Source of the DNA: an uncultured Alphaproteobacteria bacterium
GTDB lineage: Bacteria; Pseudomonadota; Alphaproteobacteria; HIMB59; GCA-002718135
DNA length: 64,000 nucleotides
NCBI GenBank assembly: GCA_902625365.1
Contig: CACOAX010000001.1
Span: 173,329-237,328 of the forward strand
Reading direction: 5' to 3'
This document shows, piece by piece, positions 1-48,103 of this stretch. Below the pieces are notes generated by a model. That model saw only the letters and a program-made list of their open reading frames with translations. It had not been told where the DNA came from and did not search any database. Each line of letters starts with the position of its first letter. Within the stretch, counting starts at the first letter, position 1. The position numbers and the translations under genes were made by a program.

Positions 1-508
1 AAATATGCCTTATTCTAGATTTAACTGTACCTAAAGGAATTTCAAGCTCATCTGCAATTTTTTTATGACTTTTATTTTCAAAAAAGTTCATTTTTATCAT
101 TATTTTTTGCTCTTCATCTAGCTCATTATTTATTATTTCTATTTGTTTTTTTGCTTCATTTTCTTCAATGAGGTCAACCTCTCTATCTTGGTATAAAAAC
201 TCTCTTATGTCCTCTTCTTTAAAATTTATTTTGGAATTTTTTCTGAAAAAGTCTACTTTTTTGTTTCTGGCAATAGTAAATATCCAAGTTGAAAGAGCTG
301 ATTTTTTTGAGTCATAAAGGTTTGATTTTAACCAAACAGTGCTTAAAACCTCCTGAGTTAATTCTTCAGAACTCTCACTTTTGATTCTATTTTGGATAAA
401 ATAAGCATTTATTTTTGGGGCAAAAAAATCGAAGATTTCCGAAAAAGCCATTTCGTCGCGGTCTTCTTGAATCATTTGCATTAAATTATTTAGGTTTGAT
501 TTTTCCAT
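1..508 (-). CDS. ECF-type RNA polymerase sigma-70 family factor (C-terminal end runs off the window)
   Basis: Absent from ORF track because it is open at the window edge. Manual translation from ATG 508-506 gives MEKSNLNNLMQMIQEDRDEMAFSEIFDFFAPKINAYF...STWIFTIARNKKVDFFRK...SHKKIADELEIPLGTVKSRIRH. These match sigma region 2 and the region 4 HTH. Confidence 0.8.
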   Translation of the reverse strand, partial: MEKSNLNNLMQMIQEDRDEMAFSEIFDFFAPKINAYFIQNRIKSESSEELTQEVLSTVWLKSNLYDSKKSALSTWIFTIARNKKVDFFRKNSKINFKEEDIREFLYQDREVDLIEENEAKKQIEIINNELDEEQKIMIKMNFFENKSHKKIADELEIPLGTVKSRIRHI

Positions 509-4347: not shown

Positions 4348-5181
4348 TTACATTGAGATATCCCTACCAAACCACTCTTTAGTTATTTCAGCAGTAGTTC
4401 CATCTTTAGACATTTCTGCAATTGCAGCATTCCACATCTCTAAGATATCTGTATCTTCTTTTCTAACTGCTCCGCCAACACCATCACCGAAGACACCACC
4501 AGAAAAAGTTGGACCAGTAAATGCAACATCAACACCACCATCAGATTCCATAAAATCAATAATTGATCCTACATCAGCTAGAACAGCATCACATCTTCCA
4601 GCGGCTAAATCTAAGTTGTGATCGTCAACTGCTTGATACAGTTTAACATCAACAGCACCTGACATATGTTTTTCTAAGAAATTTTGGTGAATTGTTGAAG
4701 ATTGAACACAAACAGTTTTACCATCCATTGCAGCAATTAATTGACCTATTGCAGCTTGTTCTTTTCCACCTGCATTATTAAGATTAACTTTAGCCATACC
4801 TGCAATATTTAAATTTGCTAAACCACTATTTTTTAAAACAGCAAATCTTGCACCATCAGTCATATATCCAGTAGTAAAATTAACTTTTTCTTTTCTTTCT
4901 TCAGTAATAGACATTCCAGCAATAATAATGTCATATTTGCCTTGAAGAAGAGCAGGTATTATACCATCCCAATCCTGAGTTACCCATTCACAAGTAACTC
5001 CCATACGCTTACAAGCTTCATTACCAAAATCTATTTCAGCACCTTCCAGTTCACCAGCAGAATTAAGATTGTTCCATGGCGGGTAAGCACCTTCTGTACC
5101 AATTCTGATTGTTTGTGAATTTGCAATTGAAGCAACTCCAAAAGTACCAATTGATAACAAGTATATTAAAATTTTTTTCAC
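4348..5181 (-). CDS. amino acid ABC transporter substrate-binding protein (His/Lys/Arg/Orn/opine-binding family)
   Basis: Signal peptide, then IRIGTEGAYPPWN...GAEIDFGNEACKRMG...DIIIAGMSITEERK pattern of the HisJ/ArgT/OccT family. GTG start preceded by AAGGAGGAAA. Confidence 0.9.
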   Translation of the reverse strand: MKKILIYLLSIGTFGVASIANSQTIRIGTEGAYPPWNNLNSAGELEGAEIDFGNEACKRMGVTCEWVTQDWDGIIPALLQGKYDIIIAGMSITEERKEKVNFTTGYMTDGARFAVLKNSGLANLNIAGMAKVNLNNAGGKEQAAIGQLIAAMDGKTVCVQSSTIHQNFLEKHMSGAVDVKLYQAVDDHNLDLAAGRCDAVLADVGSIIDFMESDGGVDVAFTGPTFSGGVFGDGVGGAVRKEDTDILEMWNAAIAEMSKDGTTAEITKEWFGRDISM

Positions 5182-40508: not shown

Positions 40509-40583
40509 TGGCGGTCTCGTAGGGACTCGAACCCCAAATCCATGTTCCGAAGACACGTGTGATATCCATTTCACCACGAGACC
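40509..40583 (-). tRNA. tRNA-Arg (anticodon UCG), CCA encoded
   Basis: The reverse complement folds as a cloverleaf: GGTCTCG-TG-GTGA-AATGGATA-TCAC-A-CGTGT-CTTCGGA-ACATG-GATT-TGGGG-TTCGAGT-CCCTA-CGAGACC-G-CCA. The anticodon loop CT-TCG-GA gives TCG. Confidence 0.85.
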
Positions 40584-41929: not shown

Positions 41930-43120
41930 ATGAAAAAATTTTTCTTATATGATCCAAATCTGTTGATTTATGGATTTATTATGGTCTTCTTTGCAAGTTT
42001 TGGACAGACTTTCTATATTGCATTATTTAATGAAGATATTCGTAATTTTTATAAAATTACTGATGGTGAGTTTGGATTAGTTTATGCCATCGCTACACTT
42101 GTAAGCTCATTATTATTTATTAACTTTGCTAAATTAATAGATAAAATAGATTTGAGATTTTATTCAATTGGTGTAATTTTTGGTTTAGCTTTCGCTTGTA
42201 TTGGTTTTTATTATATTTTTGACAACATTTTTCATCTTTTTCTCATTTTATTTTTATTACGTTTTTTTGGACAGGGAGCTATGACACATGCTGGCTCAAC
42301 TTCAATGGCAAGATATTTTTTAATTGACAGAGGTAAAGCGATATCAGTTGCAACTGTTGGAGGGATGTTAGCAATAATGATTTTACCAAAGATTGTCGTT
42401 AATTTAGACTTATACTTTAGTTTTAAAACTCTTTGGTTTTTAACAACCCTGACTCTTTTAATCTTAATTCCAATAATTTACTTTATTCTTTATAATCAAA
42501 AAAGCAGGGATGCTTTTCTTCAAAAAAATATTGATAATGAGAAAACACATAAAAGTTGGACCATTATAGAAATTTTAAAAGACCGAGTTTTTTTTATTTA
42601 TTTTCCATTAGCTGCATCCTTTCCATTTATTGGAACAGGGTTAATGTTTCATCAGATTTATATTTTTGATACTAAAGGATGGACAATGGAAATGCTTGGA
42701 AATGGCTATATATATTTTGGGTTATTTTCTATTTTAGGATTGTTAATAGGGGGGCCATTAATAGATAAAATAAATACAAAAAAAGCAATACCTTTTGTGC
42801 TATTACCTTTGTTAGTTTGTATTACCGTTCTTTTTTTCTTAAATAGTTTTTGGTCATTCGTACTTTACATGTCTTTATTTGGATTTAACCTTGGTTTATC
42901 AGCACCTTTTATGGGATCACTCTGGGCTGAAATTTATGGAGTAAAAAGTATTGGAACCGCTAAAGCATTACTACACGCAGTTACAGTATTTGCAAGTGCT
43001 TTATCGCCTGTTGTTTTTGGTTATATTATTGATTGGGGTTATGGAATATCAGTTATATTTTTAATTAGTTTCATTATGATTGTTGTATCGTCAATTTTAC
43101 CAATAATTTATAAAACATGA
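41930..43120 (+). CDS. MFS transporter
   Basis: 396 aa, about 12 TM segments. Confidence 0.8.
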   Translation: MKKFFLYDPNLLIYGFIMVFFASFGQTFYIALFNEDIRNFYKITDGEFGLVYAIATLVSSLLFINFAKLIDKIDLRFYSIGVIFGLAFACIGFYYIFDNIFHLFLILFLLRFFGQGAMTHAGSTSMARYFLIDRGKAISVATVGGMLAIMILPKIVVNLDLYFSFKTLWFLTTLTLLILIPIIYFILYNQKSRDAFLQKNIDNEKTHKSWTIIEILKDRVFFIYFPLAASFPFIGTGLMFHQIYIFDTKGWTMEMLGNGYIYFGLFSILGLLIGGPLIDKINTKKAIPFVLLPLLVCITVLFFLNSFWSFVLYMSLFGFNLGLSAPFMGSLWAEIYGVKSIGTAKALLHAVTVFASALSPVVFGYIIDWGYGISVIFLISFIMIVVSSILPIIYKT

Positions 43121-43257
43121 ATAAACAAATAATAGAGAGTCTTAATTTTCTAATTAATGAATACAAACGATTAAAAAAGAAAAAAGAGAATAACAGCATT
43201 AGCAGGGGTGAACTGGAAACTTTAAAAAAACTTCAACAGTATTTAGGTAAAAAATAA
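43117..43257 (+). CDS. small hypothetical protein (46 aa, not in ORF track)
   Basis: Manual translation gives MNKQIIESLNFLINEYKRLKKKKENNSISRGELETLKKLQQYLGKK. Its ATG overlaps the MFS stop (ATGA) and its stop overlaps the zapE ATG (TAATG). Confidence 0.45.
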   Translation: MNKQIIESLNFLINEYKRLKKKKENNSISRGELETLKKLQQYLGKK

Positions 43258-44291
43258 TGTTTAATGTTATTGATCAATACAATAGTTTTATTGAAAACAA
43301 TTTTATAAAAAAAAATGAAGATCAAATTGAATTTCTTAAACAAGCTAACAATATATGGTCATCCTTTAGTAAAACAAAACTATTTTTTAAGGATAAAATT
43401 TATGAGGGAATTTATCTCTACGGTCAAGTTGGAACGGGAAAGACATTTTTATTAAATTTATTTTATCAAAATACCAAGATTGGAAAAAAAATTCATTTTA
43501 ACAATTTGATGAACGAAATTCACAAACAAGTTAAAAATTCTGAAAATAAAGAATTTGCAATCGAAAACTATGTAAAGAATTTAAGTAGAGATTACAAAAT
43601 AATTTTCATTGATGAATTACATATTTTTAATATTGTCGACGCATTAATAATTAAAAAAATTTTTAATTATTTTTCAAAATATAAAATATTTATTTTACTC
43701 TCATCAAATTTTCATCCAGATAATTTATATAAAGATGGTTTACAGAGAAATGATTTTCTACCATTCATTGATTTAATTAAAAATAATTTTTTTCTTTATG
43801 ACATCAATATTAAAACTGATTTTAGAAGACAGACATTAAATCAATCAAAGACATATTTTACACCTATAACAACTGACACAACAAATGAATTTGAAAAATT
43901 ATTTAATCGCTTTGTTGATCCTTCTCACTTGACTACTATTAAAATTAAATCCAAAAGTCGTGAACTAGAGTTTGATAAATGTACTTCGAACCTCATGATG
44001 ATAGATTTTAAAAATCTTTGCGAGGTAAACTTGGGCAACGAAGACTATAAAAATATTGCAGATAAATTTAAGTTGCTATTTTTAAAAAATGTTCCTGAAT
44101 TTGATAATCAAAAAAAAGACTCTTGTAGAAGATTTATTGGATTAATAGATATGCTATATGAAAATAATTGTTCAATTGTAATTTTAGCTTCAAAACCTGT
44201 AAATTCTTTAAATAATATTACTACTCTTGCTGAAGAATTTAAAAGAACCGCTAGTAGATTATATGAAATGACTATAGTGAAACCAGATTGA
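43257..44291 (+). CDS. zapE: ZapE/AFG1-family ATPase
   Basis: YLYGQVGTGKTFLLN Walker A, IIFIDELH Walker B. Confidence 0.88.
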   Translation: MFNVIDQYNSFIENNFIKKNEDQIEFLKQANNIWSSFSKTKLFFKDKIYEGIYLYGQVGTGKTFLLNLFYQNTKIGKKIHFNNLMNEIHKQVKNSENKEFAIENYVKNLSRDYKIIFIDELHIFNIVDALIIKKIFNYFSKYKIFILLSSNFHPDNLYKDGLQRNDFLPFIDLIKNNFFLYDINIKTDFRRQTLNQSKTYFTPITTDTTNEFEKLFNRFVDPSHLTTIKIKSKSRELEFDKCTSNLMMIDFKNLCEVNLGNEDYKNIADKFKLLFLKNVPEFDNQKKDSCRRFIGLIDMLYENNCSIVILASKPVNSLNNITTLAEEFKRTASRLYEMTIVKPD

Positions 44292-45277
44292 TGAAATACA
44301 TAATTAGATTCTTAGTAAGTACATTAGTTTTATTAATAATAGTTTATTTTTCTGCAGGTTTTTATGTTGCTTATCAAATTTTAAAAATAGATCCAACTTG
44401 TGGTTTACATGAAGGATCACTTCCTAATTCATGGAGTACAAAAGTTGATTCACATGAATATTCAATCCTTGCTCGACAAAAAGTAAGAGAAAATTTTAAC
44501 TTTAAAGACTATTATTTAAATGAATGGCAAGATGTCTATTTTCAATCTCGTGACTCTGATATCAAGATTAACGGATGGCTATTTAATTACTTTCCAAATA
44601 GACCAATTATAATTGTTACGCATGGTATAAGTCCAAATGGTAAATGTAAGTCCGAGTCTAATGTTATAGCAGGTTTTTTAGTTAATAAAAAATTTAATGT
44701 TCTCACAATAGATTTAAGAAACTATGGTCAAAGTGATACTGTGAGTAACTATGATGATTTAGGTTTAAAGTCGTATAATGATATCCTTGGTGCTTTCGAC
44801 TTTTTAAAACAGATTGGTTTTAAGTCTAATAGTATAGGTTTACTTGGCATCTCCCTTGGAGCAAGTACATCTATCTTTGCAGCAAATGCGGAGCCAGATA
44901 TACTTGCAGTATGGGCCGATAGTTCACTGGCTGAATTTAATATGATTTTAAAAGATGAAATTGCAAGATATGGCCTAGCTATAGAATTTGGACCAGCAGT
45001 GAGTTTAGCTGGAAGAATTTTAACTGGAATAGATCCAAGAGAATTATCTCCAGCTAAAAAATTAACAGACAAACAATTCTATTTTTTTACTCACGGTGAC
45101 TCTGATACAAGAGTCTTAACAAGACATTTTAAATATTTTGAAGAATATACAAATAAAAATAAAATTAATGCTGAATTTTGGTTAGTTGAAAACTCTTATC
45201 ATGTTGATGCTATGTTTAAATATCCAGATGTATATTCTAAAAAGATGGAAGAGTTTTTTAATAAAAATTTAAATTAG
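44291..45277 (+). CDS. membrane-anchored alpha/beta hydrolase
   Basis: N-terminal TM segment, GISLGAS nucleophile elbow, HGDSD and SYHVD candidate Asp/His. ATG overlaps the zapE stop (TGATG). Confidence 0.8.
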   Translation: MKYIIRFLVSTLVLLIIVYFSAGFYVAYQILKIDPTCGLHEGSLPNSWSTKVDSHEYSILARQKVRENFNFKDYYLNEWQDVYFQSRDSDIKINGWLFNYFPNRPIIIVTHGISPNGKCKSESNVIAGFLVNKKFNVLTIDLRNYGQSDTVSNYDDLGLKSYNDILGAFDFLKQIGFKSNSIGLLGISLGASTSIFAANAEPDILAVWADSSLAEFNMILKDEIARYGLAIEFGPAVSLAGRILTGIDPRELSPAKKLTDKQFYFFTHGDSDTRVLTRHFKYFEEYTNKNKINAEFWLVENSYHVDAMFKYPDVYSKKMEEFFNKNLN

Positions 45278-45414
45278 GCCGGACTCTAAAACTAGTTTGT
45301 ACCTTGGCAGACACTTCTCTAGAATAAGAAACTCAACTAATTATCAAACGGCGGGTAAGATAATTAAAAAATTCTTGGCGTTCCTCCGAAGCTAAGAAAC
45401 GAGTATTATCCGGC
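45278..45414 (+). ncRNA. candidate structured RNA (leader of the sdh operon or an independent small RNA); family unknown
   Basis: Closing stem GCCGG/CCGGC, with three internal hairpins. About 40 percent G+C by hand count (55 of 137), in a much more AT-rich 332-nt spacer. The strand call rests on one G-U pair. Confidence 0.4.
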
Positions 45415-45609
45415 TAATCAAAATTAATATTTATATGTAAAAAATTCAAGATATTTAGTAAAATAAACTATAAAAATTTAGAGATTTTAAGCAATTTTTT
45501 CATTTTTTATCAACATTTTAGTAAACATACATGATAGTAAGTAAAAAATGTCTAAATTTTGAAATTAGTTACAAAAAATATAAATATATTACATATAAAT
45601 GTTAATAGA

Positions 45610-45981
45610 ATGATTGATAACAGGCCATTATCACCACACTTGTCTATCCATAAAAAGGTTTTGACCGCAGTTTTTTCAATAACTCATAGGATGACAGGTA
45701 TTGGACTTAGTATTGGGTCTATACTTATTTCAATCTGGTTTTTACTCATTAGTTTAGGGCCAAAATATTTCTTTTATTTTGAAATGATATCTCAAAATAT
45801 ACTTTTTAAACTTGTTCTTCTAATTTGGACAATAGGTATTTTTTATCATTTATTTAATGGTTGTAGAAAATTGTATTGGTCATTTGGAATAGGAATGGAT
45901 TTAAAAACTGTTTACACGTCAGGTTATATTGTAATTGTTTTAACTATATTATCTACTTTAGTGGTGTGGCTTTTACTATGA
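45610..45981 (+). CDS. sdhC: succinate dehydrogenase cytochrome b556 subunit
   Basis: NRPLSPHLSIHK...HRMTGIGL heme-ligand motif. ATG 45610 preferred over the upstream TTG at 45559. Confidence 0.88.
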   Translation: MIDNRPLSPHLSIHKKVLTAVFSITHRMTGIGLSIGSILISIWFLLISLGPKYFFYFEMISQNILFKLVLLIWTIGIFYHLFNGCRKLYWSFGIGMDLKTVYTSGYIVIVLTILSTLVVWLLL

Positions 45982-46307
45982 AAAACTATGCATTAAAATG
46001 GGTTCTGCAAAGGATTACAGCTACTATAATGATACCTTTAACTTTTTGGTTCATTTATTCAGCGATTTCTATATCAAAAATGGGATACGATGAAATTAAT
46101 ACATTCTTTAATTCATATATTAATTCAATACTTTTCTATGTGATGATGATTTCTATGCTTCTTCACTCTAAATTAGGATTACAAACAATAGTAGATGATT
46201 ATGTCACATCGAAAAAAATTTCAAAAAATATTAAACGCATTTTGAATATAAACGCATATATATTGATGATTTTAATAACTATATTTATAGTAAGAAATAT
46301 ACTTTAA
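45978..46307 (+). CDS. sdhD: succinate dehydrogenase membrane anchor subunit
   Basis: [15 protein letters not shown]...; three TM segments; ATG overlaps the sdhC stop (ATGA). The ORF-track start at 45876 is an extension inside sdhC. Confidence 0.88.
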
Positions 46308-48103
46308 TGCCTAAAAATTCTTACAATATAATTGACCATCACTACGATGTTGTCGTAGTGGGTGCTGGAGGTTCAGGCTTAAGAGCGACACTTGGATGTG
46401 CTGAATCTGGATTGAAAACCGCCTGTATTTCAAAAGTATTTCCAACAAGAAGTCATACAGTTGCTGCCCAAGGCGGTATTGGAGCAGCTTTAGGAAACAT
46501 GGGAGAAGATAATTGGAAATGGCACATGTATGATACTGTTAAAGGCTCTGATTGGTTAGGTGATCAAGATGCTATAGAGTATCTCTGCTCAAAAGCTCCT
46601 GAAGCAGTTATTGAGTTAGAAGAATATGGAATGCCGTTTAGTAGAACAGAAGATGGTAAAATTTATCAGAGACCTTTTGGTGGACATTTAACAAATAATG
46701 GAGAAGGCGCTCCTGCAATGAGAGCATGTGCAGCAGCTGATAGAACAGGTCATGCTCTTTTACACACTTTGTATCAACAATCCTTAAAGAATAACGTTGA
46801 ATTTTTTATTGAATACTTTGTTTTAGATTTGATAACAGATGAAAATGGTAATTGCATAGGTGTAGTTGCTTGGTGTTTAGAAGATGGTTCTATACATCGC
46901 TTTTTATCTCATCAAACTATCCTAGCTACTGGTGGATATGGTAGAGCATATTTTTCCTCAACTAGTGCTCATATTTGTACAGGTGATGGAAGCGCCATGG
47001 CATTAAGACAAGACCTCCCTCTTTCTGATATGGAATTTATACAGTTTCATCCAACAGGAGTATACGGGGCTGGAGTTTTAATTACCGAAGGTGCAAGAGG
47101 TGAGGGCGGTTACTTAACTAATAGTGATGGAGATAGATTTATGGAAAGATATGCTCCTAATGCTAAAGATCTTGCTTCCAGAGATGTTGTTAGTAGAGCT
47201 ATGACAATAGAAATTAATGAAAAAAGAGGTTGTGGTGAAAATGCAGATCATGTTCTACTTCATCTTGAACATATAGATGCAGACACTATACATAAAAGAC
47301 TGCCTGGTATTTCTGAAACTGCAAAAATTTTTGCAGGAGTTGATTTAACTAAGAAACCAATACCAGTTCTACCCACAGTACATTATAATATGGGCGGTAT
47401 TCCGACAAACTATAGAACAGAGGTTCTTAGGCCAACAAGTGACAATCCTGACAATGTATGTGAAGGTCTGATGGCAGTTGGAGAAGCAGCATGCGTTTCT
47501 GTTCATGGTGCTAATAGACTAGGAACAAATTCACTAATTGACCTTGTCGTTTTTGGAAAAGCATCAAGTGAAACATGCAAAGAAAAAGTAAAACCTAATT
47601 CAAAAAAAATTGAAATTAGCAAGTCTAGAACCGATGGAATTATTGATAGATTTGACAAGATTAGGCATAGCAAAGGAGATTCAACAACTGGAGAATTAAG
47701 AACTTCAATGCAACATATAATGCAAAAAAAATGTGCTGTATTTAGAACTCATGAATTAATTTCTGATGGTATAAATGAATTCCAAGAAGTTGAAAACTCT
47801 ATGGACTCAATAGATATAAAAGATAGGTCACTAATATTTAATACAGATCTTGTAGAGTCTTTAGAGTTACATAACTTAATGGCTCAATCAAAAGTTACAC
47901 TTCATTCTGCTTTAAACAGAACTGAGAGTAGAGGAGCACATGCTCGTGAGGATTATCAAGAAAGAGATGATAAAAATTGGCTTGTTCACTCGTTAGCTTG
48001 GCTTAAAGATAGCGGGGAAGTTAATATGGGAAAAAGAGCAGTGCATACAAACACATTAACGAATCATGTCCAACCTATTCCTCCGAAAAAACGAGTATAT
48101 TGA
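46307..48103 (+). CDS. sdhA: succinate dehydrogenase flavoprotein subunit
   Basis: [24 protein letters not shown]-linked His motif, 598 aa. Confidence 0.98.

Follow-up and report, generated by a model that had tools for sequence, protein, structure and literature searches.

A candidate gene for a structured small RNA beside sdhC in SAR11 and HIMB59-type Alphaproteobacteria

SAR11 bacteria are among the most abundant organisms on Earth, and regulators are very few and spare intergenic DNA is nearly absent in their extremely streamlined genomes. Here we ask what is encoded in a 332-nucleotide (nt) spacer within a 64-kb stretch of DNA from an uncultured HIMB59-type alphaproteobacterium (GenBank assembly GCA_902625365.1, contig CACOAX010000001.1, positions 173,329 to 237,328; this whole stretch is called the window below). 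The spacer runs from the end of an alpha/beta-hydrolase gene (44288-45277) to the ATG of sdhC at 45610, with sdhD and sdhA next, as Pfam confirms. A preliminary description, made from the letters of the window, had singled out 45278-45414 as an uncharacterised structured RNA, a claim that is borne out by conservation, covariation and the absence of an Rfam match. The sequence, coordinates and composition (G+C 0.40) that it gave for the element are correct, as is the length of the spacer, the remainder of which has 15-18% G+C. The region holds a structure on the minus strand that is under strong constraint at the RNA level and occurs throughout the clade in a single copy, and we consider it highly likely to be a stand-alone gene for a structured small RNA (sRNA) of ~140-145 nt:

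45278..45414, minus strand: structured sRNA gene, RNA 5' end at about G45414, last paired base C45278, matched by our covariance model R1 with 155.7 bits

Conservation beside sdhC

Two sets of loci were compared. For the genome set, a scan with the SdhC protein, taking one genome per species, gave 70 loci from Pelagibacterales single-cell genomes and metagenome-assembled genomes (MAGs), HIMB59-type genomes and MarineAlpha5; upstream DNA is present in 68 of these, and BLASTN found the element in all 68, in the same place each time. It is 97-99% identical where the SdhC protein is only ~75% identical, and still 74-86% identical where SdhC has fallen to 61-70%, with entire blocks invariant across the loci. 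For the metagenome set, an exact-pattern scan of contigs, anchored on two invariant blocks and with the most abundant type deliberately excluded, added 108 loci, in which SdhC identity goes down to ~40%. A second SdhC protein search, aimed at distant lineages, returned only relatives at least 79% identical. The orthologous hydrolase-sdhC spacers were thus collected and aligned as the preliminary description had proposed, and they show both the conservation of the element and compensatory changes in three of its stems (P1, P2 and P4, below).

The element sits ~200-270 nt upstream of sdhC throughout (~195 nt from the ATG in the window), and all 96 metagenome loci that extend far enough have sdhC downstream on the plus strand. 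A hydrolase homologue precedes the element in 87 of 91 metagenome loci, but in three loci (L120, L127 and L138) an upstream uracil-DNA-glycosylase-like (UDG-like) gene takes the place of the alpha/beta hydrolase, so the RNA travels with sdhC and not with the upstream gene. Another locus, L080, is high in GC in its left part and has the look of a chimeric contig. With covariance model R1 we found exactly one copy in the 64-kb window and one match in each of the 100 loci searched, at 74-158 bits, while a pattern scan of viral contigs gave no matches. A small open reading frame (ORF) was considered as an explanation and rejected: the lengths of the element are not confined to multiples of three but occupy all three residues modulo 3, and no ORF is conserved within it, from which we conclude that it is not coding.

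Fold, transcribed strand and ends of the RNA

The proposed fold consists of five helices, listed here with RNA positions numbered as m = 45415 minus the window coordinate:

45408..45414 with 45278..45284, minus strand: P1, closing stem, m1-7 with m131-137, 5' strand GCCGGAU, 3' strand GUCCGGC
45400..45404 with 45331..45335, minus strand: P2, m11-15 with m80-84, ACUCG with UGAGU
45372..45398, minus strand: P3, hairpin, m17-43, lower stem UUCU/AGAA, 2x2 internal loop, top GCUUC-GGAG-GAA(C)GC
45338..45366, minus strand: P4, hairpin, m49-77, 8-base-pair (bp) covarying stem, UU/UU internal loop, inner 2 bp, invariant loop CCGCC (CCCGCC)
45292..45322, minus strand: P5, hairpin, m93-123, CUAG-AGAA-GUGUCU-GCCA-AGGUAC-AAA-CUAG, essentially invariant

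In this predicted arrangement the 7-bp P1 encloses two domains, namely P2 carrying P3 and P4, and the hairpin P5; P1, P2 and P4 are supported by covariation. Folding of the single sequence is only modestly better than that of shuffles (z = -2.9 on the plus strand and -2.1 on the minus strand), and the case that the element is more than chance is comparative rather than thermodynamic. On the window sequence the comparative structure has an energy of -29.4 kcal/mol, or -33.4 when extra pairs are allowed, against -35.4 for the minimum free energy (MFE) fold.

The comparative case was made on two alignments. In a MAFFT alignment of 41 sequences, with the same set of 41 pairs scored on both strands, 96.9% of the cells are paired; none of 500 column shuffles reaches this value, and registers slid along the alignment give 30-42%. 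On a single measure 2 of the 500 shuffles reach the value of the structure; on all others the structure exceeds every shuffle. In an alignment of 100 sequences, fitted to the structure of R1, 95.1% of the cells are paired, with 16 pairs and 208 cells showing changes on both sides and a covariation score of 0.188 versus 0.105. The pairs with the highest mutual information after average product correction are those of P1, P2 and P4.

Among the stems, P2 is the clearest case of covariation. Its four core pairs have all changed on both sides (C-G to A-U or G·U, U-A to C-G in 13 sequences, C-G to U-A in 12), even with the GAGU of its 3' strand nearly invariant, and the raw sequences contain variants such as AACCUU/GAGGUU (L114), ACUUU/AAAGU (L133) and AAUCUA/UAGGUU (L167); the fifth pair is doubtful, with no standard pair in 46 of the 100 sequences. 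In P1, 99-100% of the cells are paired and the second pair goes from C-G to U-A in 41 of the 100 sequences. In P4, 8 of the 10 pairs have changes on both sides. The lower stem of P3 shows only U-A to U·G changes, plus two from C-G to U-A, and the upper 16 nt of this hairpin are invariant in all sequences. P5 is paired in 100% of cells on the minus strand, its sole changes being from U-A to U·G. The 68 genome loci, which were collected without bias, show the same invariance of P5 and of the P3 top as the metagenome set. The junctions and linkers, by contrast, vary in sequence and length, while the three hairpins are invariant, stems included.

Several pairings had been written down by hand in the preliminary description, and they fared differently. 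The closing stem GCCGG/CCGGC is real, since the conserved unit begins and ends exactly with it and it covaries from C-G to U-A, and the hairpin at 45338-45345/45359-45366 is the heavily covarying P4. The hairpin at 45372-45379/45391-45398 also exists, as P3, including its internal loop, but its top folds to a 4-nt loop and not to the 11-nt loop that had been drawn. An extension of the closing stem, ACUC 45283-45286 with GAGU 45401-45404, has to be given up, as this GAGU pairs instead with the invariant ACUC at 45331-45334 to form P2, with double compensatory changes. We also considered a shorter version of that extension, CUC (45284-45286) with GAG (45401-45403), as an alternative to P2; it shows some covariation in a few lineages, but it does not follow the P2 variants seen in L133, L159 and L114 and was dropped. 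Finally, the module CUUGGC...UAAGAAAC, which had been taken for an internal duplication, is confined to this lineage, and the 3' half of its first copy (AAUAAGAAAC) is variable elsewhere.

In three divergent lineages a further hairpin of ~25-30 nt is inserted between P1 and P2 (L050:2586-2753, L116:6576-6743 and L152:1015-1183), which brings their RNAs to 168-169 nt as against ~137; the P1-P2 junction therefore tolerates insertions.

All comparative signals agree that the transcribed strand is the minus strand, and so speak against the plus-strand transcript that had first been favoured. Canonical pairing is higher on the minus strand in both alignments (96.9% versus 86.1% for the 41 MAFFT-aligned sequences, 95.1% versus 85.7% for the 100 in the model-based alignment). 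Read on the minus strand, the latter contains 416 G·U cells and 34 A·C cells, most of which we judge to sit at the doubtful fifth pair of P2. Individual pairs tell the same story: the seventh pair of P1, which would read C·A on the plus strand, is either U·G or U-A on the minus strand; P5 has two G·U pairs, both invariant, that likewise turn into C·A mismatches when the plus strand is read; and in P4 the sequences of L027, L010, L029 and L001 have A·C on the plus strand where the minus strand has G·U, with three such pairs in L027 alone. RNAalifold gives -23.6 kcal/mol for the minus strand versus -14.5 for the plus strand. The G45377-U45393 wobble that had been used as an argument for the plus strand does not help, as the pair is not conserved and reads G·A in other lineages. 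Two plus-strand folds were set aside, one being the MFE hairpin at plus-strand positions 18-35, which is contradicted by uncompensated variation at 19-22, and the other the RNAalifold structure, which is weak.

Further sequences conserved on the minus strand frame the RNA:

45421..45426, minus strand: putative -10 hexamer TAATTT, 6 nt before G45414, with T1, A2 and T6 conserved
45444..45449, minus strand: putative -35 hexamer TTGAAT, exactly 17 nt from the -10 hexamer
45260..45277, minus strand: U-rich tail CUAAUUUAAAUUUUUAUU, directly after the P1 3' strand, likely 3' end region

When the loci are anchored at the first base of the RNA, a footprint is seen that consists of TTGAAT, 17 unconserved nt, TAnnnT, a further 6-7 nt and then the G that opens P1. 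The pattern TTGA[AC]N-17-TAnnnT-6..8-(+1) fits 119 of 142 unique upstream regions, compared to 0.6 expected from shuffles. We infer from this conservation that the RNA has its own sigma-70-type promoter, with a start at or beside G45414. At the other end, at least 5 U are found in the first 8 nt of 73 of 94 unique downstream regions, and in most lineages UUUUUUAUUUU follows directly after GGC or GAC; in the window the tail extends over the final codons of the convergent hydrolase gene. Conservation thus places the probable 3' end in the U-tract after the GC-rich 3' strand of P1, whether by termination or by processing. The RNA would then be transcribed from its own promoter, divergently from sdhCDAB and toward the convergent hydrolase gene, and would end in the U-tract beyond P1. 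This orientation, away from sdhC and converging on the upstream gene, is at odds with the idea that the element is a cis-acting leader for the downstream array of tricarboxylic acid (TCA) cycle genes.

A possible shared control region between the RNA and sdhC

The AT-rich part of the spacer carries conserved sites of its own:

45507..45515, plus strand: DnaA-box-like site TTATCAACA, between the sRNA promoter and sdhC

A site with at most one mismatch to the DnaA box TTATCCACA is found in 155 of 160 unique spacers, compared to ~10 expected, and 101 spacers have two such sites, typically as yTATCCACA-N3-TTATnCACA, all in one orientation and ~115-127 nt before sdhC. The pair could mark a replication origin, but there is no GC-skew switch at this position in the window and the genes on both sides are co-oriented, and for this reason we favour a DnaA-type regulatory site. 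Closer to the gene, ~50 nt before the sdhC ATG, is a conserved motif TTTTGAA(A/T)TT...TATA(A/C)(A/T) at 45556-45590, with a -35-like TTGAAA at 45559-45564. This is probably the sdhC promoter, and if so the sdhC mRNA would not include the structured element, even if the latter were read on the plus strand.

Possible roles of the RNA

As a whole, the explanation that we find probable is a stand-alone, divergently transcribed structured sRNA that acts in trans as a scaffold. Its mode of action, taken separately, is proposed tentatively: the RNA may offer three hairpins of invariant sequence to a conserved partner, which is most likely a protein but might also be ribosomal RNA. The parts displayed would be the top of P3 (its GGAG loop lying within a Shine-Dalgarno-like GGAGGAA), the P4 loop CCCGCC, and the whole of P5. 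The reason for reading it in this way is that the junctions are variable while whole hairpins, stems included, are invariant, a pattern that is the opposite of what is seen in base-pairing sRNAs of the seed type and is also unlike a riboswitch with its pocket in a junction. The P3 loop and its flanks read CGGAGGAAC, which is Shine-Dalgarno-like and complementary to the P4 loop (CGGAGG/CCGCCG), a pairing that RNAalifold found on the plus strand; the two loops, both invariant, may kiss within the P2-P3-P4 junction. The fixed divergent position, together with the pair of DnaA-box-like sites, suggests co-regulation with, or a role tied to, the expression of respiratory and TCA-cycle genes. A more specific version, in which the RNA is a subunit or regulator of an unrecognised ribonucleoprotein, or a ligand-sensing sRNA, specific to SAR11/HIMB59, with a core function of housekeeping rank tied to respiratory-chain and TCA control and possibly to a DnaA-dependent cell cycle, is speculative, and we regard it as doubtful.

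A number of points weigh against this picture. That the RNA is transcribed at all, and where it starts and ends, is read from conservation only. A consensus promoter scan missed the minus-strand promoter, because its -10 hexamer shares just 3 of 6 positions with TATAAT, and a terminator scan called none at the element, as the strands of the 'terminator' stem pair at long range around 123 nt, which is atypical. The pairing of P5 and of the top of P3 is plausible rather than proven, as neither contains a compensatory change, and their invariance in the metagenome set is partly forced by the search pattern, which leaves the 68 genome loci as the unbiased set. The 100-sequence alignment had been fitted to the very structure that it is used to score. 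The link to sdh or to DnaA is drawn from synteny, and the scaffold proposal comes with no identified partner, target or ligand.

An alternative is that the minus-strand sRNA is an Hfq-type regulator that base-pairs with mRNAs, perhaps those of the neighbouring sdhCDAB genes, which we think unlikely. In Escherichia coli, RyhB, Spot 42 and RybB are encoded elsewhere in the genome and place short seeds on the ribosome-binding sites of sdhC or sdhD. These share with the present RNA an association with succinate dehydrogenase expression, but here the linkage is physical and we found no conserved complementarity to the sdh mRNA. The RNA does have a 3' stem followed by a U-tail and an internal U-rich linker, its linkage to sdhC is invariable, and in the window m25-34 and m9-18 are complementary over 10+10 nt to 48078-48098, the ribosome-binding region of sdhB (the sdhA stop codon TGA at 48101-48103 overlaps the sdhB ATG at 48103). 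Across lineages, however, the PPKKRVY codons differ freely at their synonymous sites whereas the RNA segment is invariant; as the complementarity is not kept at these sites, the sdhB ribosome-binding site was rejected as a conserved target, and the match is probably a coincidence of the PPKKRVY codons. Duplex energies with the region from -70 to +30 of sdhC were no better than with shuffled sequence (duplexfold also gave unrealistic duplexes with long loops), and the combination of invariant hairpins with variable single-stranded linkers is, again, the opposite of a seed-type sRNA. For other mRNAs the target search covered the 64-kb window. It gave one GC-rich perfect complement of 10 nt to the P4 loop region, GGCGGGTAAG at 5078-5087, which is antisense to a minus-strand gene for a substrate-binding protein (start near 5181) and hence not in its mRNA; this was judged a chance match and discarded.

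We also weighed a function as a riboswitch-like aptamer on the minus strand, with P1 doubling as a terminator stem so that a ligand would set termination against read-through. The purine riboswitch is a three-way-junction aptamer with kissing hairpin loops, and the resemblance is clear: P2 closes a junction with two hairpins, P3 and P4, whose invariant loops are mutually complementary, and a U-tract comes directly after P1. In addition, SAR11 relies unusually on riboswitches (PMC2704228). The differences are that the junction nucleotides are not conserved, so that no pocket is apparent there, that no expression platform is seen, and that the RNA strand has no downstream gene, the next gene being convergent (mostly the hydrolase, in three loci the UDG-like gene). 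On balance an aptamer of this kind is improbable. A 5' leader or riboswitch of sdhCDAB itself was rejected outright, as the RNA strand is the minus strand and its promoter is directed away from sdhC; an expression platform for sdhCDAB was dismissed likewise, given the ~195-nt AT-rich spacer to the ATG and a search for plus-strand terminators that found none.

Very little speaks for a plus-strand RNA, whether a 3' untranslated region of the hydrolase gene or an sdhCDAB leader with an anti-Shine-Dalgarno CCUCC loop, and we hold it to be highly improbable. The element is located between two plus-strand genes, the folding z-score of -2.9 is that of the plus strand, and there is the one G·U pair in the window sequence; but ~10% more pair cells are mismatched on the plus strand, where two invariant P5 pairs become C·A and the RNAalifold energy is the weaker (-14.5 versus -23.6), it is the minus strand that carries the conserved promoter and the U-tract, and the element is upstream of the TTGAA..TATA motif that resembles an sdhC promoter. 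The exposed UUCCUCC loop of the preliminary description is accordingly not displayed by the RNA, as the transcribed strand reads GGAGGAA there, with GGAG as a tetraloop. This also bears on a known group, the anti-Shine-Dalgarno sRNAs of the cuckoo/RSs0680/alpha-r14 type, which have 2-4 adjacent hairpins, each with a CCUCCUCCC loop (PMC4615179). The present RNA has an alphaproteobacterial host in common with them and the DNA of the element contains a CCUCC string, but there is one such string, located on the strand that is not transcribed, and what the RNA itself contains is GGAGG; membership, which calls for several CCUCCUCCC loops on the transcribed strand, was rejected.

Least credible of all is a DNA-level element without RNA function, such as a piece of a replication origin or a group of sites bound by proteins: the element adjoins the AT-rich 200-270 bp region with its conserved DnaA-box-like sites, and P5 and P3 are invariant on both strands with the palindromes CTAG, GTAC and CCGG, but pairing is kept by compensatory changes, the strong G·U/A·C asymmetry indicates selection on a single-stranded minus-strand molecule, and the window has no GC-skew switch there and co-oriented genes on either side.

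No known RNA family accounts for the element. A search of the window against Rfam 15 at gathering scores gave a tRNA at 40512-40583 as the sole match, and a search of both strands of 45150-45700 at E-values up to 10 gave nothing that overlaps 45278-45414, in agreement with the preliminary description, which had seen no known family in it and had proposed this search. ARAGORN found no tRNA or transfer-messenger RNA in 44800-46000. The signal recognition particle's 4.5S RNA was excluded, as there is no match to RF00169 and the SAR11 4.5S RNA maps elsewhere, between pheA and dnaX (PMC2704228). With 6S RNA (ssrS) the element shares an independent gene, 5' and 3' ends in a closing stem, conserved synteny, near-universal presence in its clade and very high constraint; 6S RNA, however, is a long rod with a central bubble, whereas the fold here is multi-branched, supported by covariation and 137 nt long, and as RF00013 gives no match at E-values up to 10 this family was rejected too. 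The element is absent from the ranked intergenic regions in Table 1 and the supplements of Meyer 2009 (PMC2704228) and from the HIMB5 motif table of Stav 2019 (PMC6429828). These surveys of SAR11 non-coding RNA likely passed over it as the AT-rich remainder of the spacer dilutes the intergenic G+C below their cut-offs. The invariant strings of the RNA were found in no paper of the searchable literature. As far as the tools used can tell the RNA family is undescribed, and going by the databases and surveys compared it would be a new family of stand-alone structured bacterial sRNA.

The RNA gene is very probably important to SAR11, since it appears to have a promoter of its own, none of the lineages examined lacks it, and its conservation exceeds that of the adjoining respiratory-chain protein. 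The covariance model makes it annotatable in thousands of marine genomes and metatranscriptomes, and the fixed divergent arrangement with sdhCDAB, together with the pair of DnaA-box-like sites, offers a hypothesis for how central metabolism might be controlled with almost no transcription factors. Three of the loci, L051 (MarineAlpha5_Bin5) and the HIMB59-type MAGs L056 and L059, have the RNA gene, the promoter geometry and the hydrolase-RNA-sdhC synteny in common with Pelagibacterales. Presence in HIMB59-type genomes provides an independent character of the rare-genomic-change type, which could link these bacteria, whose placement is debated, to Pelagibacterales. Elsewhere in the window, a 46-residue ORF (MNKQIIESLNF...) at 43117-43257 lies between the gene for a major facilitator superfamily (MFS) transporter, which ends at 43120, and that for an AFG1/ZapE-like ATPase, which starts at 43257, and overlaps the stop of the one and the start of the other by a few bases.

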